Below, piece after piece: positions 52,358 through 64,000 of a stretch of DNA of 64,000 bases (within the stretch, counting starts at the first letter, position 1; each line of letters opens with the position of its first letter). This DNA comes from Kiritimatiellia bacterium. Lineage in GTDB: Bacteria; Verrucomicrobiota; Kiritimatiellia; RFP12; UBA1067. The position numbers were made by a program, and so were the translations under genes. Location of the stretch: assembly GCA_017628025.1 (NCBI GenBank), contig JAGBZX010000033.1, positions 13,280 to 77,279 of the forward strand, written 5' to 3'. The notes beneath the pieces were generated by a model. That model searched no databases, had not been told where the DNA came from, and saw nothing but the letters and a program-made list of their open reading frames with translations.

Positions 52358-54066
52358 TCTTCAATCTCCGTATCGCTAGACTGCTCAACTGTCATAGTGG
52401 CAGCTACTGGCTCAAAACCAATTTTATCAAGAGTCGTCTTCTGCCACTTGTCTGAAACCTGCCTACGCTGAAGCATCTGAACATCAGATGCAATCTGCGA
52501 GCGAAGCATCATTGCCTTAGCCGCGTCACCACGAACACGGTCAACACAGACAACGAGAAGACCACGATTTAAACCTGTTGAAACGAAAGGTGAAATACCA
52601 TCCTTCGAAAGCTTAATGGCATTTTGCATAACAACGTTCTGGTCATCAAACGTGCCAGGCTGAACGTCACTTACAGAGAAGGTGATATTCGTTGAAACGT
52701 TACCACTAGCAAGAACTGCCTTAATCCCCTTCTGTGCTATAGCTTCAACGGAAGCTTTGAATGCGTTCTTTTTCGCGTCACGGAGAGCGCGATTTTTAAT
52801 CTTATCCTTTGCCTCTTCAAATGATGGCGTGTGAGCAGGAGAAAGCTCTGCACGCTCAACAAGCCAAACTGCTTTCTCTGCGCTTACGATACCATAACGA
52901 AGATCCTCAACTTCTGGATCAAGTTCAGCTATAACTTCAGCAGCGTTCTTCGCGCCAGGCAAAACCTGCGAAAGGCGCTTAACGAAGCCTTCTTGCCATG
53001 CGCCATTAAGAGCGAAGTAATCACTTGTAACTACCTTAAGAGAATCGGCCTTTGCTATTTCATCCAACATAGAAACGCCCTTTTTGGCCGGAGCAGAATA
53101 GACTCTATGGAGCAAATTCGTCTCAAAATACTCAATAGCAGCAATTTGGCGAAGTTCCTTCTCGATTTCGCCTTTAACTTCTTCAAAAGCCTTAACCTTT
53201 TCTACGCCGTTAGTGTCGGTAGTAGTATATTTATCAATCATAACATCGTAACGATCGTGCATTTCATCTTCAGTAACGACCATACGAGCTAAAAGTTCAG
53301 GATCTTTCGCATCAAAGCGAATATAGCGAACTTTCATACGCTCAGGAAGAGCAAGTGACTTTACATTTTCATCATACCACTTTTTAAGACCTGCTTCATC
53401 AAGCTTAACAGCATCAGCTGCTTTTTTATCTTGAGTAAAGCGAGCAATACGAACTGTAATAGTGTCAGTCATATCTTCAACTGCCTGATCCAACTCCGCC
53501 GGTGACGCCCAGCTAGCGACATCTGAAACTGTAGAAGCTAAACGCATAAGAGTAGCACGGCGCTTGAAGTACTCTTCAAATCTTTCTGGAGTAAGACCAA
53601 TACCTGCAAGCGTTGACTTATAAAGCTTAAAGCTAAAGCCGCCATTTGCCTGGAAGTTTCTATCAGAACGAATAATTTGAGCAACTTCATCATCAGTAGC
53701 AATTAAACCGTTTTCCTTTGCTACTTGAAGGGCCGCAATCATCTCCCATGTTTGACGATTTACTTCTGTAAAACTGCGGTCTGTGTCACGATTCATACCA
53801 AAGCCACGAACATCCTCTGCGACACTCGTGAAATAATCAGAATCTATCTCTTCGCCGCCGAGTTTGCCAGCACCAGACTTTCTCTGTTCATCGCCACCAC
53901 GTATTATAGAATCATCAAGGCAGAAAAAGAGTGAAATCGCAATTGCGAACGCGCCCCACACCCACTTGTTCCTGATCAACTTATTGAACTGCAGAATAAC
54001 CATTGCTTTCCTTTGCTTTATTTTTATTTTTCCGTCTCGAGTAGTCGAGCCTTTAATGTAACTCAA
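52354..54066 (-). CDS. Periplasmic chaperone / peptidyl-prolyl isomerase (PpiD/SurA-like)
   Basis: 570 aa with an N-terminal TM anchor and SurA_N-like and PPIase-like regions. Confidence 0.5.
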   Translation of the reverse strand: MSYIKGSTTRDGKIKIKQRKAMVILQFNKLIRNKWVWGAFAIAISLFFCLDDSIIRGGDEQRKSGAGKLGGEEIDSDYFTSVAEDVRGFGMNRDTDRSFTEVNRQTWEMIAALQVAKENGLIATDDEVAQIIRSDRNFQANGGFSFKLYKSTLAGIGLTPERFEEYFKRRATLMRLASTVSDVASWASPAELDQAVEDMTDTITVRIARFTQDKKAADAVKLDEAGLKKWYDENVKSLALPERMKVRYIRFDAKDPELLARMVVTEDEMHDRYDVMIDKYTTTDTNGVEKVKAFEEVKGEIEKELRQIAAIEYFETNLLHRVYSAPAKKGVSMLDEIAKADSLKVVTSDYFALNGAWQEGFVKRLSQVLPGAKNAAEVIAELDPEVEDLRYGIVSAEKAVWLVERAELSPAHTPSFEEAKDKIKNRALRDAKKNAFKASVEAIAQKGIKAVLASGNVSTNITFSVSDVQPGTFDDQNVVMQNAIKLSKDGISPFVSTGLNRGLLVVCVDRVRGDAAKAMMLRSQIASDVQMLQRRQVSDKWQKTTLDKIGFEPVAATMTVEQSSDTEIEE

Positions 54067-55142
54067 AAATCAAAATTATCGTCAGAAGAATTTTCCTCTG
54101 TGTTTTCCGTAGTCTCAGAGGCCTTCTCTTCTGAGTTTTCTTCAGCCTGAGCAGTCGTCACGACACTACCAGCGTCAACAGATTCCTGCGACTTTTTAAT
54201 AAGCTCTGCCTTACGATCTTTAGCCGTTGGCGCAGTCTCTCCAGTATTGACTTCATAACGACCTTCAGTAAAAGCACAACTATTGCAAAGAACACCAGAA
54301 GCATCAAATGTCATTATCGCAACTGAAAGATTCTTTCCTAATTGTGGGCGTGAGCGATGAATGCGAACATTTGTCTGAGGCGATATCTTCCAATCAAGAT
54401 ATTTCTCTTCTATTTTAGATGTGCCGGTTTCGTAATTCTTAATCTCAACTAAACCCTGAAAAAGCTTAGACATGTAATCGCCACCGATGCCTGTAATGCA
54501 AGTAAAGAGCATATCTTGAGAAGTACGAAGCCTAATAGCATTCTGAGCTCTAAGCTGAAGAACTTTAAAATGCATGCCTTCTACGGAAAGAGAGCCACTA
54601 GAGCACTTGATGCGAACATCATCTCCGTCACCGGTGAGTTTGCGGCTGTATTTTGATTCGCCAGAAAGACCTGTTACCTTAAAGCCTGTAGACGAAACAA
54701 ACATAAACCCGTCTTGCATGTTTTGCGGCAAACGAAGCTTCAACTCGCCCTGACCTAAGACGATTGTACGAGTTAAATCACCAAGACCTTGAGCTTTTGT
54801 GCCGAAGCTTGAATTTCCATAAAGCGTAACAAAACACTTTTTACCAAGCTGCATTTCAAACTTTGAAGAAGCAGTTAGCGTACGGAAGAAAGCACCAAGA
54901 GGATAATAGCGATTAACCTCAACTGGCTTCCACTCATTGCTGCCAGGTATCATTACCTCAACACTGCCTAAGACAGATTTGCAGACAGGAAGAGTCGTGA
55001 AATACTTTGGCGGCGGCTGCTGTGGGCGTTGAACCTCTTCGGCCTGAACCGGTGTATTTTCTGCACCGTCAATAGATTCATCGGCGAATATCACCGTTGA
55101 AATGGTTGTTACGGCAACTGCCGCTAAAAGTTTTTTCATAGA
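54063..55142 (-). CDS. Secreted hypothetical protein with acidic C-terminal tail
   Basis: Has the signal peptide MSMKKLLAAVAVTTISTVIFA; no known domain. The ORF extends to 55199. Confidence 0.5.
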   Translation of the reverse strand, partial: SMKKLLAAVAVTTISTVIFADESIDGAENTPVQAEEVQRPQQPPPKYFTTLPVCKSVLGSVEVMIPGSNEWKPVEVNRYYPLGAFFRTLTASSKFEMQLGKKCFVTLYGNSSFGTKAQGLGDLTRTIVLGQGELKLRLPQNMQDGFMFVSSTGFKVTGLSGESKYSRKLTGDGDDVRIKCSSGSLSVEGMHFKVLQLRAQNAIRLRTSQDMLFTCITGIGGDYMSKLFQGLVEIKNYETGTSKIEEKYLDWKISPQTNVRIHRSRPQLGKNLSVAIMTFDASGVLCNSCAFTEGRYEVNTGETAPTAKDRKAELIKKSQESVDAGSVVTTAQAEENSEEKASETTENTEENSSDDNFDF

Positions 55143-55156
55143 CATTCTCCTAGAAA

Positions 55157-56332
55157 TCAAAGCAATGAAGCACCCGCAGATGGGCGAATAAGGCTGCATT
55201 CTGGCTCATCGCCAAATTTCGCTTTGTATTCTTTTTTAATTTGTGTAGAAATCTTATCTGCCGCAGTTGGATCAACTAAAAGACAGCAGCTACCACCAAA
55301 ACCACCGCCCGAAAGACGTGCACCATACACCTCCGGGATGGCTTTGGCAGCATCAACGATCGCATCAAGTTCTTCACATGAATTTTCAAACCAGTTACGG
55401 CTTGACTCATGCGAATCATACATTAACGCACCAAACGATTTAACATCACCCTTTGCCAAAAGCTCAGCTCCTTGAAGCACGCGCTCATCTTCACCGATTG
55501 GATGAACAGCTCTCTTGGCGGTTGTCTCAGGCAAACCACCGCGATAAAGCACCCACTCGGCCATCGTCACATCACGGAGATGTGTGACTGGCTTTCTAAG
55601 GACACCAGCAAAATATTTCGCCGCGTCCTCACACGCTTGACGACGTGAAGCATATGCACCATCTACAAGAGCATGCTTAGCATTAGACTTAACCATCATA
55701 AACGCAACTAATGGCCCAAGAGTAACACTCTCAAACTCATTTGTGCGGAAGTCACTTTTTACTAAACCACCTTCTACGCCATACATTGATGATGCCTGGT
55801 CAAGTAATCCGCAGGGGCACCCAGCATAAGTATGCTCAGCCTTTTGACCGATTTTCGCTAACTCAGTACGGCCATAAGAAGTGCCGTAAAGCTTCTGGAG
55901 AGCTAATGCTGTGGCCATTTCCAAAGATGCTGAAGACGAAAGCCCTGCACCTAGTGGCACATTACCACCTAGAACAGCTTTAAAGCCCTTCATAGCAGTA
56001 GCAGGTTTGCCGTTAAAAAGCCAAGCGAAAGTACCCAATGGATAATTAGCCCATGTGGCACCTTCTTCGATCTTGCTAACTTCTGCTAAAGTGCCGGACC
56101 ATGATTCGTTCATATCAAGAGCGAAAATTTCGACTTTATCATCTTCAGCCAATGACGCGGCGAAAAACGTGCCTTTATCAATGGCCGCAGAAAACACATA
56201 ACCTTCATTATAGTCAGTGTGGTTACCAAGTACCTCGATACGGCCAGGAGCATATGCCACAGCCTCAGGCTTTGAGGCATAAAGCTCATTGAACTTAAGT
56301 ATTACCTTGTCGTAAATTTCTTGATTTACCAT
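55157..56332 (-). CDS. galK: Galactokinase
   Basis: GHMP kinase family. The galactokinase signature is PGRIEVLGNHTDYNEGYV and the ATP motif is PLGAGLSSSASLE. The ORF extends to 56344. Confidence 0.8.
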   Translation of the reverse strand: MVNQEIYDKVILKFNELYASKPEAVAYAPGRIEVLGNHTDYNEGYVFSAAIDKGTFFAASLAEDDKVEIFALDMNESWSGTLAEVSKIEEGATWANYPLGTFAWLFNGKPATAMKGFKAVLGGNVPLGAGLSSSASLEMATALALQKLYGTSYGRTELAKIGQKAEHTYAGCPCGLLDQASSMYGVEGGLVKSDFRTNEFESVTLGPLVAFMMVKSNAKHALVDGAYASRRQACEDAAKYFAGVLRKPVTHLRDVTMAEWVLYRGGLPETTAKRAVHPIGEDERVLQGAELLAKGDVKSFGALMYDSHESSRNWFENSCEELDAIVDAAKAIPEVYGARLSGGGFGGSCCLLVDPTAADKISTQIKKEYKAKFGDEPECSLIRPSAGASLL

Positions 56333-56354
56333 AAAATACCTCAATCAAATTAAC

Positions 56355-57656
56355 TCAATCTTTTTTCTGGCCAAGTCTAGAACCGATAAGCGCATAGAAA
56401 AGAACATATGCCAAAAGCGCAATCGTAAACCAATAGCTGTTTAGAATGCCAATCTTATCGGCAATTAAGCCCTGAACGGGGATAAGGATACCACCAAAAA
56501 CCATCGACATGAATATGCCCGAACCCATTGGGACATACTTGCCAAGACCTTCTGCTGCCATATTAAAAATGCCACCCCACATAACAGAAGTGCAGATACC
56601 ACAAGCAACCATAAACGCCATTGAAAGCGGGAAGCTATAGTTAAATAGAGTAATCATCTTAACTGGTGCAAATATCGCCGCAAGAAGAAGCGAAATGCCG
56701 AGAATCGCAAGGAACGTTGTCTGAGCGCGCGAAGAGACCTTGCCGCCGATAACGCCACCTAAAAGTCTACCACACATCATAAGGAACCAATATGCACCGC
56801 AAACCACGCCAGCGACAGCGGCGCCAACGTAGCCAGGACCTTTCGAAACGATTTCGCCTGCGGCATCCTTGACACAATCTGTCATATAAAGCATACCCAT
56901 CGAAGGAACACCTACTTCAATAACGATATAGAAGAAGATGGCCACAGCACCAAGAGTAAAGTGGGGGAACTTTAAGGTAGATGCAATATCCTTCATTACT
57001 GAGGTGTTGCCTGCAAGGCGAGAAGCCTTCTCTTCTGCCGTTTCCATATGTGGTTCAGGAATCTTAGAGAAAGCTACAATAACAAAAGCGAGCGCGAAAA
57101 TACCCATTGCAATCATAAGTGCTGGAGCTGCCTTAATAAATGCAGTATCTTTAGTAATTTCGCCGATAAGCCAACCGAGAACCGCCGGCGAAAGCGTAGC
57201 GCCGACAGAGTTGAGCGAGCAGCCGAACTGAACGAGCTGATTGCCCTTGTTGCCGCCGCCGCCGAGCGTATTAAGCATCGGATTTACTACGAGATTAAGC
57301 ATGCACATAGAAAAGCCAGCAATAAATGCACCTAGAACATAAATGGCAAATGAGCCAACGTAGCCGGAAACCAGCTGAACAGCGACACCTGCAAAACCAA
57401 CAGCTACAGCAGCAAGAGCTGTAAATTTATAACCCTTACGCTTAAGAATAAGACCGCCAGGGATACCCATAAAGAGGTAAGCAATAAAGTTTGCCGCGTT
57501 ACCAAGCTGTGACAGAGCATTTGACGCATTGAATTGGTTTTTAGCTATAACGCCCATGGGGCTAGCGAAGTTTGTAACGAACGCGATCATAAAAAACAAC
57601 GCGAACATCGTGGCAATTGCAGCAATATTGCTATTGGACTTATTTTGAGATTCCAT
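56355..57656 (-). CDS. MFS transporter, FucP/glucose-galactose (sugar:H+ symporter) type
   Basis: 433 aa, 12 TM. The N-terminus is FucP-like and it sits adjacent to galK. Confidence 0.6.
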   Translation of the reverse strand: MESQNKSNSNIAAIATMFALFFMIAFVTNFASPMGVIAKNQFNASNALSQLGNAANFIAYLFMGIPGGLILKRKGYKFTALAAVAVGFAGVAVQLVSGYVGSFAIYVLGAFIAGFSMCMLNLVVNPMLNTLGGGGNKGNQLVQFGCSLNSVGATLSPAVLGWLIGEITKDTAFIKAAPALMIAMGIFALAFVIVAFSKIPEPHMETAEEKASRLAGNTSVMKDIASTLKFPHFTLGAVAIFFYIVIEVGVPSMGMLYMTDCVKDAAGEIVSKGPGYVGAAVAGVVCGAYWFLMMCGRLLGGVIGGKVSSRAQTTFLAILGISLLLAAIFAPVKMITLFNYSFPLSMAFMVACGICTSVMWGGIFNMAAEGLGKYVPMGSGIFMSMVFGGILIPVQGLIADKIGILNSYWFTIALLAYVLFYALIGSRLGQKKD

Positions 57657-57730
57657 TTATTTTACCCCCTTTTTTTGGTTATCGTAAAGTATAGCAAAAT
57701 CACAGTTCATAGTCAATTATTGAATTGTGG

Positions 57731-57763
57731 TACTCCTAAGCCTATAACCTAGGCTTAGGAGTA
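57731..57763. other. Perfect 13-bp inverted repeat (hairpin) with 7-nt loop between the large surface-protein gene and the MFS gene; possible terminator or regulatory site
   Basis: tactcctaagcct ataacct aggcttaggagta, seen directly in the sequence. There is no immediately adjacent U-tract on either strand. Confidence 0.4.
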
Positions 57764-57798
57764 ATTGGAGAGTATGCCTTAGTATTTTTCTTTCAAAC

Positions 57799-60700
57799 TT
57801 ACCTAATTACCAGCGACATTCCTGCTGGCCAAATAATCTTGCCACCACCTTCTACTACTAAATTTGCATACGAGCCACCCCAGCCATTGCCGTCTTTATG
57901 CTTCTTTGACATAACGCGGAGGGTGTGACCCTGAAGATTAATCTTGCCGCCACGTATATTTAAATCATATACCTTCGTATCAGCAAGTAAATATAACGTG
58001 CCAGAAGACAAGTCAACCGTCGCCTTTGCATATGCCGACTTTGCTGGACCATCTGCCGACATTGGGAATGACGTGCCTGCATTGCTGCCAGGGGCAAAAT
58101 AAATTGTGCCACCACCCTCTTCGCTATTGGCAAACTGGTAGTATTTAGTGCCTGTGCCAGAGTAACGAGTGCCATTATAATAATGAGCTACTGAAATGCC
58201 ACCAGCAAACGATAAAGATGTAGCCTCTGTTTGATAAATCGCAACTCTTCCACCTGCGCCACCATATTCCGAACTCTTGCAATCGGCAGTTATAGATCCG
58301 CTACCAACTAGAGCTGCCGCAGATATAATAATACTACCTCCTGCGCCACCTTTTCCTGTCCCACCATTAGCAGAAATAGTACCATTATTTGTTAAATCGC
58401 CATCTGCAATTATCTTTATTTGACCGCCACCTGCACCTTGAATGTATGGCGAGCCGAATGTCACTGGGTTAAGGATTGAACCATAACAAGAGGAAACTGA
58501 TTGCAAATATCCAATAGCTCCGTGCGAAGGGCTTATCGTTGAATCACCTTGTCCAGAACCTTTCGCTGGTCCATACCCAGCGGCAAATCCTTTTCCATTA
58601 ACATTAATAGAAGCACCTTTTTCAACTGTAAAATCACCTTTGATATAAAGATTAACTCCGCACGATTGAGTATTAGCACTGCGAGGTCCATCGTGAGTAA
58701 TTGTAGCTGTTGGGCGAACAATCGCAAATAAGTTTATTATATTATCTGTAGCAATGCTGTTTAAAATAAGTGTTGCCTTCTCTGATACATCAAGAGCATT
58801 TTTAGTTTCAATTGCTTTATTACATTGCAATGATGCAACATAGTCTGTTCCTCCAATTATCAAACCTCCCAAAGAAACTATTGCTTCATCTGAATTAAGA
58901 ACTACAGAGGCAGAAGACGTCTTTGGGCAAATAGCAACAATAGCATCTTCGCCAGGAACTCCTACAGGAAGCCAATTTTCAGGAGTTGACCAACTTGTAT
59001 CAACGCCACCTACCCACTCTACAGCGCTACCGGAGGTGAAATTCCAATTTATGTTACCACCGCTATCTGTGGCAAAGTCGCCAGCAGCAATCATAAGCCC
59101 TAAACTAGCATTGCTATTACTTACTGCTACGCCACGAACGCGCATAACGCCATTAACCTTAAGTCCCCATTTTTCACCTAAACTAGACGATGTAAGAGTT
59201 ATAAGTTTATTAGCATAATCGCCATTTGCACCATCAATATCAAAAACATCTGCTTCAATCGTTTTACCAGTTGGCATTATGAAGGAGGTAACAGATGAAG
59301 AAAGAACCTTAAGGCGCTTTGCTATTAAGCCATTTGGCAAGGTAACAGTGCCTCCAGACTTGGTAATTAAAATATCTCCGTACTCACCATTACCAAAGTC
59401 AAGCGTCGCATCGCCCTGGCCTTCTATGATAAGTTTCTCGGTATTAGTTCTCGTCATAGCGCCCGCCAAGGATAAGTTATTTGTAACTATTAAATTAACT
59501 GCCGAAAGTTTAATAGACGCTCCTTGTTCTGTTATAAGCGTATTTACCTTAGTTTCCGCAATTATGTTCGGATAATTTGCACACCCAGAGGGTATAATTA
59601 TTACATCTGTTTCTAATGGCAAGCGAACTCCACCATATTGATCAAGCCAATTGTCGGCATTTCTCCAAGAAGTATCTTTAGCTCCAGTCCAAGTAAGGGG
59701 GTCTCCTGGTTTTGCTGGAACAGGAAAGCTCCAATTATTTTCTTTTGAGTAATCATCGCCATTAGAATTATCAGCAATAATAGCAACTCCAGAAGCTTTA
59801 CATTTGAGAACATCTACATAATTAATAGACATTGCTACTCCACTGTTAACCTTAAGCGTCCAAATGCCATCATCTGTAGCAGGTTTTAGTTTAAGAAGAT
59901 TATTTTCTGCACCATTAAGTTCAAGCTTTCCATTTGCTGCAATTGCAATAGTTGAAGAGTTTTTTAACTTAATAGTGGCTCCTTCTGGTGTATTGCAAAC
60001 TAATGAATCTAGAGTTAAGACTGTATTTGCGTCTGTATAAGTATATTCAAAAACGTCACCTGGTTCTGGGCTTATAATAATTCCGCCTACTTTTGTTCCA
60101 TTATTTCGCTTAGCGGTAGAAATGCTCGTTGAATTCTCAATATCCAATCCTCTAGTTAATGTTATAGAGAAATCATTTATCGATACATACGCGCCTCCTT
60201 TGACAATAAGTTTACCGAATGGTTGCTCGGCATCTGTAACGTTAGTTTTAATATATGTATATTTTTTACTTGTTTGGCTTTTGCCATCGATAATTAAGTC
60301 TCCACGACCTGATTCGTGCTTTGCACTTTCAAAATAAATAGTCCCACACGAACCCTTGCCAGTTTGACCGCAGGCAGCTGTTACTTTAGCTGAAAATGGC
60401 ACCTCACTAAATTCTTTTTGTTCTTTCGTATAAATAGCTATTCTGCCTCCACCACCGCCAGGATAAGAAGTGCCTGTGCCACCTACCGTGCTAACTATGC
60501 CTGTGCCAGATAAAGCTCCACCTTTAACAATAATTGAGCCTCCTGCTCCATTGCCACTAGAAGATGCATTAGCAGTAATCGTTCCCATTAATGATATTAA
60601 ACCCTCGGCAGAAAGATAAATTACTCCGCCACCAGCTGCACCACTGCCAGAGCCACCCTCAACTGGATTTCTTATATAACCATATGCATTTAATGTATGA

Positions 60701-61323
60701 TTGGCTGCACCACTACCTTGTGTTCCGACTCCACCATGAGAAGAGCCTCTATAATCATTACCATATGTTTTACCAGGGTAAGGACCTTTCCCGGCAGCAA
60801 ACCCACAACCATTAGCATTTACTACGCCTCCATCCTTAATAGTAATATTACCGCCTGCTTTTAAATTGAGTTTGTAATCTGTTTTACCAATCGCCGCAGT
60901 TCCTGTGTTTGTCGTCGCTAGAGGGGTATGCGTAATCTTGCCTTTTGCGCCAACAACAATATCATTAACTATATCTCCTACGAAATTATCTTTAGTTATC
61001 TGAACATTTAGTTTTAGCGTAACGACTGCACTTGCATCTTCATTGTCACCGATAGTAAGTGATTTTACATTAAACTTAGATGACGCCGTCACCGTATACG
61101 CGGCAGTTCCGGACGGGATAATAACATCGTCATCTACTCCCGGCGCTTCCGTTGCAACAGTTCCGTCAGAAAGCGTCCAGTTCGCCGCCGTTGCGAAAGT
61201 GCCGTCCTTTAACGCTCCTGTTTCTGCATTTTTCAACGCCCATGTGTAGGTATCGGCAAAAACCGGAGAAGCAAAAGAAATTATACCACTAACAAAAGCT
61301 ACCACTAATAATTTAATAGCCAT
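57799..61323 (-). CDS. Large secreted beta-helix repeat surface protein with Pmp-like GG[AVSR]I motifs and W-x-G-x-DTSW-x4-NW motifs
   Basis: 1174 aa with a signal peptide. Two internally duplicated Gly-rich modules (aa ~150-300 and ~880-1050) carry GGVIYL, GGSIIV, GGRIAIY and GGAGGSIII. The NW-containing motif appears three times. Confidence 0.7.
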   Translation of the reverse strand: MAIKLLVVAFVSGIISFASPVFADTYTWALKNAETGALKDGTFATAANWTLSDGTVATEAPGVDDDVIIPSGTAAYTVTASSKFNVKSLTIGDNEDASAVVTLKLNVQITKDNFVGDIVNDIVVGAKGKITHTPLATTNTGTAAIGKTDYKLNLKAGGNITIKDGGVVNANGCGFAAGKGPYPGKTYGNDYRGSSHGGVGTQGSGAANHTLNAYGYIRNPVEGGSGSGAAGGGVIYLSAEGLISLMGTITANASSSGNGAGGSIIVKGGALSGTGIVSTVGGTGTSYPGGGGGRIAIYTKEQKEFSEVPFSAKVTAACGQTGKGSCGTIYFESAKHESGRGDLIIDGKSQTSKKYTYIKTNVTDAEQPFGKLIVKGGAYVSINDFSITLTRGLDIENSTSISTAKRNNGTKVGGIIISPEPGDVFEYTYTDANTVLTLDSLVCNTPEGATIKLKNSSTIAIAANGKLELNGAENNLLKLKPATDDGIWTLKVNSGVAMSINYVDVLKCKASGVAIIADNSNGDDYSKENNWSFPVPAKPGDPLTWTGAKDTSWRNADNWLDQYGGVRLPLETDVIIIPSGCANYPNIIAETKVNTLITEQGASIKLSAVNLIVTNNLSLAGAMTRTNTEKLIIEGQGDATLDFGNGEYGDILITKSGGTVTLPNGLIAKRLKVLSSSVTSFIMPTGKTIEADVFDIDGANGDYANKLITLTSSSLGEKWGLKVNGVMRVRGVAVSNSNASLGLMIAAGDFATDSGGNINWNFTSGSAVEWVGGVDTSWSTPENWLPVGVPGEDAIVAICPKTSSASVVLNSDEAIVSLGGLIIGGTDYVASLQCNKAIETKNALDVSEKATLILNSIATDNIINLFAIVRPTATITHDGPRSANTQSCGVNLYIKGDFTVEKGASINVNGKGFAAGYGPAKGSGQGDSTISPSHGAIGYLQSVSSCYGSILNPVTFGSPYIQGAGGGQIKIIADGDLTNNGTISANGGTGKGGAGGSIIISAAALVGSGSITADCKSSEYGGAGGRVAIYQTEATSLSFAGGISVAHYYNGTRYSGTGTKYYQFANSEEGGGTIYFAPGSNAGTSFPMSADGPAKSAYAKATVDLSSGTLYLLADTKVYDLNIRGGKINLQGHTLRVMSKKHKDGNGWGGSYANLVVEGGGKIIWPAGMSLVIR

Positions 61324-61344
61324 AACAACCCCTTTCCTATTATT

Positions 61345-61382
61345 GAGAGTATTTTAGCAATTACCCCCCCCCCTTGTCAATA
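61345..61382 (-). promoter_or_regulatory. Near-consensus sigma70 promoter (TTGACA-N18-TAAAAT) of the large surface-protein gene with a G10 homopolymeric tract inside the spacer
   Basis: The minus strand reads ttgacaAGGGGGGGGGGtaattgcTAAAAT. The -10 is ~28 nt upstream of the ATG and the RBS is AGGAAAGGGG. The tract shows as C10 at plus 61364-61373. Confidence 0.6.
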
Positions 61383-61470
61383 ATAATATGAACAAAACTT
61401 CGGCAATACCCAACGGCAAAAGCGCACTTTACTTGCGTTTGCTTATGAATAAAGAGGGGGAAAAGAAAAT

Positions 61471-63954
61471 TTATTTAAAATATATCGTCGAAGGCTCCAC
61501 GCCCTCTGCCGACGCTGTAAGGACGACTTCGCCTGGGGCAGTACGCCTTATGACAAGTCCTGCTCTACCGCCAAAAAGCGGATGAGAAGCGACTTCCTTA
61601 AACGAATCATATCCGTGCGGATCAGAGTTTCCTACCGCGACAATCTTCGCATTACCTTCTATCTTAAAGTTTACGCGCCGATTATCACGAGGAACTTTAA
61701 CACCAAATCTGTCTTCTAAAGTAACTTTAATATACAAAAACTCTTCTATGTTCTGAGAGAGGACCTTAGACTCACTTTCTAGAACTACGCGAGCAGGCTG
61801 CATAGCAGTTTTCAAAACTTTCTCCCCTAGGCGCTTACCCGACTCATCTAATGCTACAGCTTTTATCTCGCCTTTTTGCCACTCAACATTATTCCATATT
61901 AAACGATAGCGCGGCATACCACCGTAGTAGCCATAGCGTAACGACGCCTTTTTATTTTTTGTCTTAACGCCTTGAGAGACACCATTAACGAAAAGCTCTG
62001 CCGATGGTGCGCTAGTATAAACATACACTGGCAGTTTCTTCTCTGAGCGGTATTCGAAATTCCAGTGATCAGGAACTATATGCAAAGTAAAAGCATCTTT
62101 ATTCCAGTATGATCTATAAAGATAAGCTCTGTCTTTTGGAAATACTAACAAATCAAAAATGCCATAGTAGGAACTTCTTGAAGCCTTGCCAGGGGGAACG
62201 GGGATTTTCGTATGACTAATATTCCCGTGAGCATAAGGAGTAGGTTCGCCAAGATAATCAATACCAGTCCACACAAACTCTCCGCCCATGTAAGTGTCGA
62301 CTTCGGTTTTCTCAAATTCGCGATCAGGTATATCACTCCACGGTGAGGCATTTCTATCATAGGAATCGACACGAAGTGAGGCAATTGCATAATCTGTTTT
62401 ATTAGTTGGCAACTTATCAGCATAGAAACCATATTCAGAGCACGCTGAGGCTGATTCAGTATAAAGAACTGGCAAATGCGGGTATTTACGGTGCATAATA
62501 CGATACTGAACGCCATAATTCCACCCCGATATATCAAGATTATTGTAGTGACCTAATTCGACAGCCTCAGAAAAACAACTACCAATTCCTACGGGACGAG
62601 TAGTATCAAGCTCACGAATTGCATTTCTAAATCTTGTGCAACGCTCAGCAGTCGTGCCAATAGTTGATGGCATATCCCATATTTCTTGACCGGGAGCAAA
62701 CCCGCCGCCAGGGGGGATTTCATTGCCAATTGACCAAACAAATATCGAAGGATGATTGCGGTCGCGGCGAACAAACTCCTGAAGTTTTGTTTTGACAAAA
62801 TCCTCTAGTACCTCATCACCACGGGCAGTCGTCTGATTCCATTTATCAAAACATTCGTTCCAAACAAATATGCCCATTTCGTCGCACAAATCTAGCGTTT
62901 CTGGAGAAACTGGATTGTGAGCAGTTCTAATAGCATTAGCACCCATATCAAGCATCTTCTCGAGTTTGCGACGCATAACTGAACGGTTGTAGGCAACACC
63001 TAGAATCCCTAAATCAGAATGAAGACACACGCCTTTTAATTGGACACGCTTGCCATTTAAAATAAAACCGCCCGCTGGATCAAACTTAAAAAAGCGAAAT
63101 CCAGTTCGCACCATAACCTCGTCTTCAGCGTCCTGAGCAGAAAGCACTAATTTTACTTTGTAAAGTTTTGCATTTGAACCCAACGACCATAACTGTGGAT
63201 TTTTGACTTTTGCTGAAAATGAAAACTTCTCCTCTGCACACTCATTTAGTTTAAGCTGCTTTTCTAAAGAAAGAACCTCTTTGCCGTCTGGAGCTAGAAG
63301 AATCATTTTAAGTTTCGCACTTGTGTCATCTAGCCTACGACTAATCACAACGCCCTCAACTTTTAATGTTGCATTCGACTCTGAAACATTTTCATGAGAA
63401 ACAAAAACATCTTTGCTACTTATATACACTTCTGCTGTCTCTATTTTCCTCACGCGGCGATACATGCCAGCACCTGGATACCAACGAGAGGAAAGTTTCG
63501 TTGTATCTGCTTTTACCAGTATTGTATTAGTGCCGGCAAAAACATAAGCCGTAGCATCAGCACACATACCAAGATAACCATATTGCTGACGTGCGCACGG
63601 CTGATTATTAACAAAAACCGTCCCATCACACATCACACCATCAAAATCAAAGAATAAACGCCTACCATTAAGAGGTTTATCTATTACGAAGTTTTTGCGA
63701 TAATACCCTACTCCCTTCCAAGGCAACTTACCAGTATTTGGGTCGCCATTAGGCTCAAATGGCCCTTCTATAGCCCAATCGTGCGGCACATCTACTGCTT
63801 TCCAAGTTTTGCCATCGCGAGAAAACTCCCAGCCATCATTGTAACTTTCAACTCGTCTACCAGTCAGAGTAGTGGCGGCAAATAAATCAAAGACAAAAAC
63901 TAAAAAAGCAAGGGCCAATAAAAACTTAGCTCCTAGTTTGATTTTAGAATACAT
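61471..63954 (-). CDS. Glycoside hydrolase family 2 (beta-galactosidase/beta-glucuronidase-like), secreted
   Basis: 827 aa with a signal peptide. The GH2 acid/base region is WSIGNEI. Sugar-binding, Ig-like and TIM-barrel domains are arranged in order. Confidence 0.75.
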   Translation of the reverse strand: MYSKIKLGAKFLLALAFLVFVFDLFAATTLTGRRVESYNDGWEFSRDGKTWKAVDVPHDWAIEGPFEPNGDPNTGKLPWKGVGYYRKNFVIDKPLNGRRLFFDFDGVMCDGTVFVNNQPCARQQYGYLGMCADATAYVFAGTNTILVKADTTKLSSRWYPGAGMYRRVRKIETAEVYISSKDVFVSHENVSESNATLKVEGVVISRRLDDTSAKLKMILLAPDGKEVLSLEKQLKLNECAEEKFSFSAKVKNPQLWSLGSNAKLYKVKLVLSAQDAEDEVMVRTGFRFFKFDPAGGFILNGKRVQLKGVCLHSDLGILGVAYNRSVMRRKLEKMLDMGANAIRTAHNPVSPETLDLCDEMGIFVWNECFDKWNQTTARGDEVLEDFVKTKLQEFVRRDRNHPSIFVWSIGNEIPPGGGFAPGQEIWDMPSTIGTTAERCTRFRNAIRELDTTRPVGIGSCFSEAVELGHYNNLDISGWNYGVQYRIMHRKYPHLPVLYTESASACSEYGFYADKLPTNKTDYAIASLRVDSYDRNASPWSDIPDREFEKTEVDTYMGGEFVWTGIDYLGEPTPYAHGNISHTKIPVPPGKASRSSYYGIFDLLVFPKDRAYLYRSYWNKDAFTLHIVPDHWNFEYRSEKKLPVYVYTSAPSAELFVNGVSQGVKTKNKKASLRYGYYGGMPRYRLIWNNVEWQKGEIKAVALDESGKRLGEKVLKTAMQPARVVLESESKVLSQNIEEFLYIKVTLEDRFGVKVPRDNRRVNFKIEGNAKIVAVGNSDPHGYDSFKEVASHPLFGGRAGLVIRRTAPGEVVLTASAEGVEPSTIYFK

Positions 63955-64000
63955 CTTGAACTCTCTTTTTAAAAACTAAGACTGCTTATCTCGCGGATCA

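Follow-up and report, generated by a model that had tools for sequence, protein, structure and literature searches.

A homopolymer of ten guanines (G10) lies between the -35 and -10 boxes of a predicted promoter upstream of a gene for a giant, probably secreted beta-helix protein in a Kiritimatiellota gut symbiont, and it seems likely to act as a promoter-spacer contingency locus of the porA type, in which slipped-strand changes of tract length would make the expression of this protein phase-variable. The locus is part of a 64-kb stretch of DNA, referred to here as the window, and its features are collected in Table 1. A first-pass annotation of the window had proposed the slip-prone spacer tract as a candidate switch for a large secreted protein, and this central proposal is now supported by length polymorphism of the tract and by the conservation of the promoter that contains it. 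Loci from other assemblies are designated by L numbers.

Table 1. Features of the locus, numbered from the first nucleotide of the window
Feature	Positions	Strand	Basis or remark
GH2 beta-galactosidase gene (context only)	61471..63954	minus	Upstream and co-oriented; profile matches
-35 hexamer TTGACA	61375..61380	minus	TTGAC invariant in eight aligned ortholog upstream regions
Promoter spacer, 18 nt here (a + G10 + taattgc)	61357..61374	minus	Includes the extended -10 TG
G10 homopolymer (C10 on the plus strand)	61364..61373	minus	Length-variable element
-10 hexamer TAAAAT	61351..61356	minus	TG.TA.AAT columns invariant across orthologs
Short 5' leader	61324..61350	minus	Shine-Dalgarno-like AGGAAAGGGG at 61338-61329
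Putatively controlled gene, 1174-aa predicted secreted all-beta (beta-helix) protein of an uncharacterised family	57799..61323	minus	ORF
Predicted signal peptide, residues 1-23, MAIKLLVVAFVSGIISFASPVFA|DTYTW	61255..61323	minus	Only hydrophobic stretch of the protein
Hypervariable allele cassette, ~codon 108 to stop	57800..61000	minus	Comparison with L007:3320-6520 (GCA_045646825.1)

Read on the minus strand from 61380 to 61321, the window sequence is TTGACA a GGGGGGGGGG taattgc TAAAAT actctcaataataggaaaggggttgtt ATG, and this second reading confirms the geometry described in the first-pass annotation, namely a TTGACA box, an 18-nt spacer with the G10 inside it, and a TAAAAT box. The spacer is composed of an a at 61374, the tract at 61373-61364, and taattgc at 61363-61357, with the tract wholly within it. 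An extended -10 element, which was absent from that annotation, is formed by the TG at 61359-61358. The distance from the -10 box to the ATG (61323) of the 1174-aa ORF is 27 nt, and transcription is predicted to start near 61344. Within the leader, the sequence 'caataataggaaaggg' is conserved in L005, L006, L010, and L095, and an Rfam search of the intergenic region gave no match. The tract is intergenic, as no ORF in the ORF list of the window spans the G10. The only inverted repeat found there is an imperfect one of 11 nt (91% complementary; 61334-61344 and 61382-61392), which brackets the 37-nt promoter core. It is AT-rich, overlaps the ribosome-binding region, and is judged to have arisen by chance.

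The tract exceeds what is expected by chance. It is the sole G/C homopolymer of at least 7 nt in the window, where G/C runs of length 4, 5, and 6 number 109, 14, and 4, respectively, none has a length of 7-9, and one has a length of 10; at a G+C content of 41%, a first-order Markov model predicts ~0.013 G/C runs of 10 nt or more over the same DNA. Contingency loci are typified by homopolymers of ~8 nt or more that are outliers in their genome, and the tract, at 10 or 11 G, has this length and is an outlier as judged in the 64 kb. The hexamers themselves need to be treated differently. TTGACA at 61380-61375 belongs to the top-scoring promoter-like site within 55000-64000, and the window holds three sites with 11/12 hexamer matches, compared to a mean of 2.5 in Markov simulations; the consensus score was rejected as promoter evidence because such matches come at chance rate in the window. 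The case for the promoter therefore rests on its position and conservation.

The conservation was assessed with orthologous loci whose proteins share 33-64% identity and which were obtained from exact-protein look-ups and one metagenome protein scan. In that scan only L013-L017 were true relatives, and the remaining matches share just the beta-helix motif GGGGRIAIY. A metagenome DNA scan that allowed a variable gap between the tract flanks gave no match, and a genome-collection protein scan returned only an unrelated partial match in a Chitinophagaceae MAG. In the eight ortholog upstream regions that were aligned, invariance is confined to TTGAC, TG.TA.AAT, and parts of the leader, and the remaining upstream DNA is diverged and not alignable. 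The tract-free orthologs have spacers of either 17 nt (L005, L006/L091, and L015:2204) or 18 nt (L009, L010, L013, L095, and L015:5896), and the spacer of one family promoter (L015:1505) is fixed at 19 nt. Since the boxes and the 17-18-nt spacer are kept while other upstream DNA diverges, the promoter is judged to be real, and it is this footprint that points to a working sigma-70-type, extended -10 promoter. The promoter is presumably used in vivo, and we know of no promoter mapping in Kiritimatiellota.

The orthologs also indicate how the tract may have evolved. The closest orthologs of the window gene (L005, L006, and L091) have GAC[AT]AGCGTG in the tract position and keep the same promoter, and other orthologs have interrupted G-rich remnants there (GGGAGGGGGC, GTGGGAGAGTGG, and GGGTGGGGGGTGG), so that a G tract looks to have been repeatedly gained and decayed in one promoter position. 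A perfect tract is present in a second, divergent lineage, a higher-GC relative whose protein is 56-58% identical and whose upstream DNA is unalignable except for the promoter boxes. The promoter of this lineage is TTGACA-G10-tatgg-TATAAT in L008 and TTGACA-G11-tatgg-TATAAT in L092 and L093, each from a different sample. The comparison of orthologous loci, which had been recommended in the first-pass annotation, thus gave both conserved promoter boxes and a second lineage with G10 and G11 at the equivalent spacer position, the tract beginning right after the -35 box. The assembled spacers of the second lineage, measured to the conserved TATAAT, are 15-16 nt and lie outside the range of 17-18 nt; they could represent an OFF state, a shifted -10 box (the overlapping TAATAT, at 17/18 nt), or under-called tracts. 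The allele of this lineage is mosaic: in the 200-nt stretch that ends in the promoter, identity is 97%, and in the gene body it is 58-90%.

Several other features of the ortholog upstream regions were noted. A 273-aa ORF in L015 has another G10 at its stop codon (L015:1412-1421). About 85 nt downstream of this tract, a family-type promoter, TTGACA-GGGTGGGGGGTGGATATGG(19)-TATAAT (L015:1505-1535), precedes a 195-aa ORF, and this relative may have in it a second promoter associated with a tract. Short tandem repeats that differ among orthologs are found just upstream of the -35 box at L009:1480-1570, L013:140-200, L015:1960-2100, and L094:550-700. They are GTCAGTG/GTCAGTA heptamers in L009, CATCACT/CATTACT heptamers in L013, and units of ~45 nt, ttcgaaagtggccgctc.gtcagcgcggcggttttc, in L015 and L094, and may be further variable elements or regulator sites. 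In addition, near-identical promoter/leader/signal-peptide modules, TTGACG-gggagggggcgtatgtgg-TATAAT ... ATGAAACGAGC, are present at L009:1595-1680 and L015:5896-5980, where they precede proteins of 1164 aa and 1550 aa, respectively, which suggests a portable 5' module common to paralogs.

Tract length differs between assemblies of one strain. L001 (ENA ERZ28653769) is aligned to the window over 9202 nt with one substitution and carries G10, as does L012 (Logan SRR12529112), which has no differences over 3084 nt. In L002/L011 (Logan SRR12529145; 6801 nt aligned) and L003 (Logan SRR12529139; 4271 nt aligned), the only difference from the window is an extra tract G, giving G11. Over the 23.4 kb aligned in total, the sequences differ twice in tract length and by one substitution, with no further indels, all of these being differences between assembly consensuses, in which homopolymers of 10-11 nt are error-prone for Illumina sequencing and assembly. 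G11 is also found in L007 (GCA_045646825.1), which belongs to a separate project and to a strain with a different allele. The spacer states seen are accordingly 18 nt (G10) and 19 nt (G11), and G9, with its 17-nt spacer, was absent among the assemblies compared, which show only two lengths. As expected of a contingency locus in clonal genomes, the length differs between near-identical flanks, at the consensus level and with an uncertain independence of the assemblies: reads may be shared among the window MAG, L001, and one of the SRR assemblies, and the independent observations are fewer than the contigs. The length heterogeneity that the first-pass annotation had advised seeking in assemblies is therefore present at the level of consensus sequences, in assemblies that are otherwise identical, and the invariant tract length that it had named as an argument against its proposal was not observed.

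In the contingency-locus reading, slipped-strand mispairing at replication would lead to the gain or loss of one G, and the distance between the -35 and -10 boxes would be 17, 18, or 19 nt for G9, G10, and G11, respectively. The altered spacing would change how the two boxes are aligned, both rotationally and linearly, for RNA polymerase, and the population would become a mix of high, intermediate, and low expressers, showing a heritable, reversible, and graded phase variation. Because the tract-free orthologs are fixed at 17-18 nt, G9 and G10 are predicted to be the expressing state and G11 to be the reduced one. The allele-swapped gene described below would then encode an exposed target, such as a phage receptor, an adhesin, or an antigen, for which stochastic on/off control pays. 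An extended -10 (TGn) element can lessen the dependence of a promoter on its -35 box and spacer, and the effect of the tract on expression may therefore be small.

This property of the promoter also underlies an alternative explanation, in which the tract is unstable but neutral or nearly so, being a mutational by-product of a G-rich spacer, and the gene is expressed through the extended -10 element and/or by read-through from the GH2 gene. TGn precedes the -10 box in every ortholog, and tract-independent expression by read-through is possible because the DNA between the GH2 gene and the promoter (61381-61470) contains no terminator-like site (fold z = -0.06). The fixed 19-nt spacer of L015:1505 and the 15-16 nt of the second lineage also suggest some tolerance of spacer length. 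However, the invariance of TTGAC across orthologs at 17-18 nt implies that selection maintains the -35 box and that it is used, persistence of a neutral tract at 10-11 nt would not be expected in 64 kb where long G/C runs are otherwise absent, and perfect tracts stand at the equivalent position in two divergent lineages. We consider near-neutrality unlikely on these grounds, although it deserves to be kept in view. It is rather improbable, too, that the difference between G10 and G11 is a sequencing or assembly artefact and that the tract is a stable, fixed part of the promoter. To our knowledge, G/C tracts of at least 9 nt are mutable in every bacterium examined, which counts against a stable tract. 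The artefact explanation is favoured by the use of consensus sequences only, by the fact that the differences are all of one nucleotide, and by the steep climb of short-read indel error with homopolymer length, which is general knowledge and also a topic of PMC8808543. Nevertheless, one pipeline (Logan) yielded G10 in one run (SRR12529112) and G11 in two (SRR12529139 and SRR12529145), which argues against an assembler bias. The 23.4 kb of aligned sequence are free of other indels, the unrelated project behind GCA_045646825.1 likewise recovered G11, and the second lineage shows the same pattern of one nucleotide more or less. The libraries are, moreover, reported to be PCR-free and sequenced as NovaSeq 150-nt reads, if the runs are part of the Xie 2021 project, to which we infer from the record names that they belong (PMC8199421).

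Two other explanations do not involve spacer length at all. The G run could be a recognition or structural element, such as a regulator site or non-B DNA, that acts by binding, and the -35-proximal half of the spacer is indeed G-rich in several orthologs even without a homopolymer. This is very unlikely in view of the closest orthologs, in which the non-G-rich GAC[AT]AGCGTG leaves the promoter unchanged; furthermore, no regulator gene is adjacent, and a single run of 10-11 G should not be able to form a stable intramolecular quadruplex. The promoter could also be switched by DNA inversion between the 11-nt imperfect repeats, which are 91% complementary and separated by 37 nt. Such a switch is hardly credible, as known invertons are much longer than this segment, the neighbourhood has no recombinase gene, the arms are AT-rich with the downstream arm being the conserved ribosome-binding region, and a single orientation is found in 9/9 assemblies that cover both tract-bearing lineages.

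Whichever states the proposed contingency locus adopts, the protein that it would control can be described in some detail. A 'Kiritimatiellae bacterium' MAG has the identical protein, annotated as hypothetical, and the locus is also present in ruminant gastrointestinal metagenome assemblies. The predicted signal-peptide cleavage site lies before DTYTW, and at the mature start, ADTYTW, 23 homologs show no variation at A23, T25, T27, and W28 and at least 90% conservation at D24 and Y26. An AlphaFold2 model is confident (pLDDT 85.4) and all-beta. There is an internal duplication, in which residues 87-343 match 836-1074 (E 1e-22) and 365-560 match 589-785, with the C-terminal third of the protein repeating the N-terminal beta-helix module. 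A Foldseek search against the PDB found nothing significant (best E 0.17), as did a PDB sequence-profile search, and searches of Pfam and NCBIfam assigned no family to the 1174-aa protein at E<=0.01. The protein nevertheless belongs to a sizeable family without a Pfam or NCBIfam model, which comprises 421 cluster representatives at E<=1e-30, mostly of 1100-2900 residues and in a few cases far longer. The C-terminus of the family is conserved, ending in W..G....R-COOH, and might be a sorting signal.

The protein had been labelled 'Pmp-like' in the first-pass annotation, and this label fails on every Pmp feature examined (motifs, Pfam/NCBIfam models, and autotransporter barrel): the protein has one GGA[ILV] motif (GGAL), no FxxN, no match to Pfam Chlam_PMP or ChlamPMP_M, and no barrel. 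Membership of the two-partner secretion proteins (TpsA) was also rejected, as the NPNL and NPNGI motifs are absent and the neighbours are GH2, MFS, and galactokinase genes, with only the fold being similar. The absence of any Pfam autotransporter match that would indicate a C-terminal barrel led to the rejection of membership of the autotransporter adhesins, and PEP-CTERM and LPXTG signals are likewise absent from the protein. Taken together, it is a giant secreted beta-helix protein that is probably surface-located or adhesin-like, its exposure being suggested only by the signal peptide and the adhesin-like fold of the model.

The body of this gene behaves as a swapped allele cassette. Relative to L007, nucleotide identity in the cassette falls to 42-73% in 200-nt bins, compared to 98.5-100% in the other bins between 55200 and 64000, except for the transition bin 61001-61200 (95%). 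The breakpoints are near codon 108 and at the stop codon, so that the promoter, the tract, the signal peptide, and the first ~100 codons are common to the window and L007. The two proteins are 58-60% identical, and the L007 allele, at 60% identity to the window allele, is nearer to the alleles of other lineages (P0010, 77%; P0002, 72%). Allele cassettes are present in both tract-bearing lineages. At the level of sequence comparison, this is the pattern left by diversifying selection together with recombinational allele replacement, the usual companion of phase-variable expression. The beta-helix family is a likely target of strong diversifying selection at the cell surface, where its members might be phage receptors or adhesins, for instance.

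Phase variation by homopolymers in promoter spacers is textbook knowledge for a few host-adapted pathogens, whereas the switches known in gut and rumen commensals are mostly DNA inversions. Neisseria opc and fetA have poly-C tracts of a comparable promoter type, and in the vlp surface-protein family of Mycoplasma hyorhinis a poly-A in the promoter spacer sets ON/OFF. The vlp system resembles the present one as a multigene variable family with a common promoter/leader module (here L009:1595 and L015:5896), but its tracts are poly-A and its products lipoproteins, while here the tracts are poly-G, the products are putatively secreted beta-helix proteins, and the tract is intact in some members and lineages only. 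The closest parallel is porA of Neisseria meningitidis, in which a change of one G in the spacer alters the transcript level in a graded manner (PMC3899988). Both systems have a G homopolymer of ~9-11 nt wholly between the -35 and -10 boxes, and recombination also exchanges hypervariable regions of the porA product, a major exposed protein; for the present protein, exposure is only presumed. They differ in that porA encodes a porin of a proteobacterial pathogen, while here a Kiritimatiellota gut symbiont has a 1174-aa beta-helix protein and an extended -10 element, and the likeness is one of sequence. In hifA/hifB of Haemophilus influenzae, the number of TA repeats alters the -35/-10 spacing and switches an adhesin (PMC3899988); that system uses a dinucleotide repeat in a bidirectional promoter, in contrast to the mononucleotide tract and unidirectional promoter described here.

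Within the PVC superphylum, chlamydial pmp genes also combine poly-G with a large beta-helical secreted protein, but their tracts are in coding sequence and act by frameshift, and the present tract is intergenic. In the capsule genes of Akkermansia muciniphila, G8/C10 tracts were proposed as phase-variation sites from one genome (PMC3048395). This organism is likewise a gut PVC commensal; its tracts are intragenic, compared to a promoter-spacer tract with length polymorphism here. The controlled protein also differs from EtpA, HMW1, Hbp, and the Caldicellulosiruptor tapirins in having no sequence-family match, TPS motifs, barrel, PEP-CTERM, or LPXTG. Our literature searches for phase variation in Kiritimatiellae, the rumen, or Lentisphaerae found no precedent, and no paper was found that names both Kiritimatiellae and phase variation. 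The proposed mechanism is a classic one, and the phylum, the habitat, and the controlled protein family are new.

The locus suggests that uncultured rumen symbionts use contingency loci. For metagenomics, it indicates that a difference in homopolymer length between MAGs can have a biological origin and need not be an error, and it offers a concrete case that is cheaply testable because the reads are already public. As a more tentative idea, for which the odds are against us at present, the tract could be one outward sign of a variation system that spans the whole family in gut Kiritimatiellae. In such a system, slip-prone G tracts would repeatedly arise and be lost in the G-rich spacer of a portable promoter/leader/signal-peptide module, giving stochastic control of expression, and gene bodies would be exchanged as cassettes, giving antigenic or receptor variation. 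If so, no simple-sequence contingency-locus system would have been described before it in the phylum or in rumen symbionts, and its driver would probably be phage, protozoal grazing, or host antibody pressure, not pathogenesis.

Downstream of the beta-helix protein gene, an MFS sugar transporter gene and a galactokinase gene follow on the same strand. A second extended -10 promoter match, TTGACT-17-TATACT with TG, is found at 57688-57716 on the minus strand, upstream of the MFS gene, and the downstream sugar-uptake genes therefore probably have their own promoter. The rest of the 64 kb is ordinary chromosome, encoding UvrA, DapF, Dxs, Def, and a SurA-like protein. Of the ORFs of at least 150 aa, 49/50 are on the minus strand, the exception (52831..53292) lying inside a minus-strand ORF, and the GC skew is uniformly negative (-0.11 to -0.20) over the 64 kb, which makes the window an unusually long co-oriented stretch.
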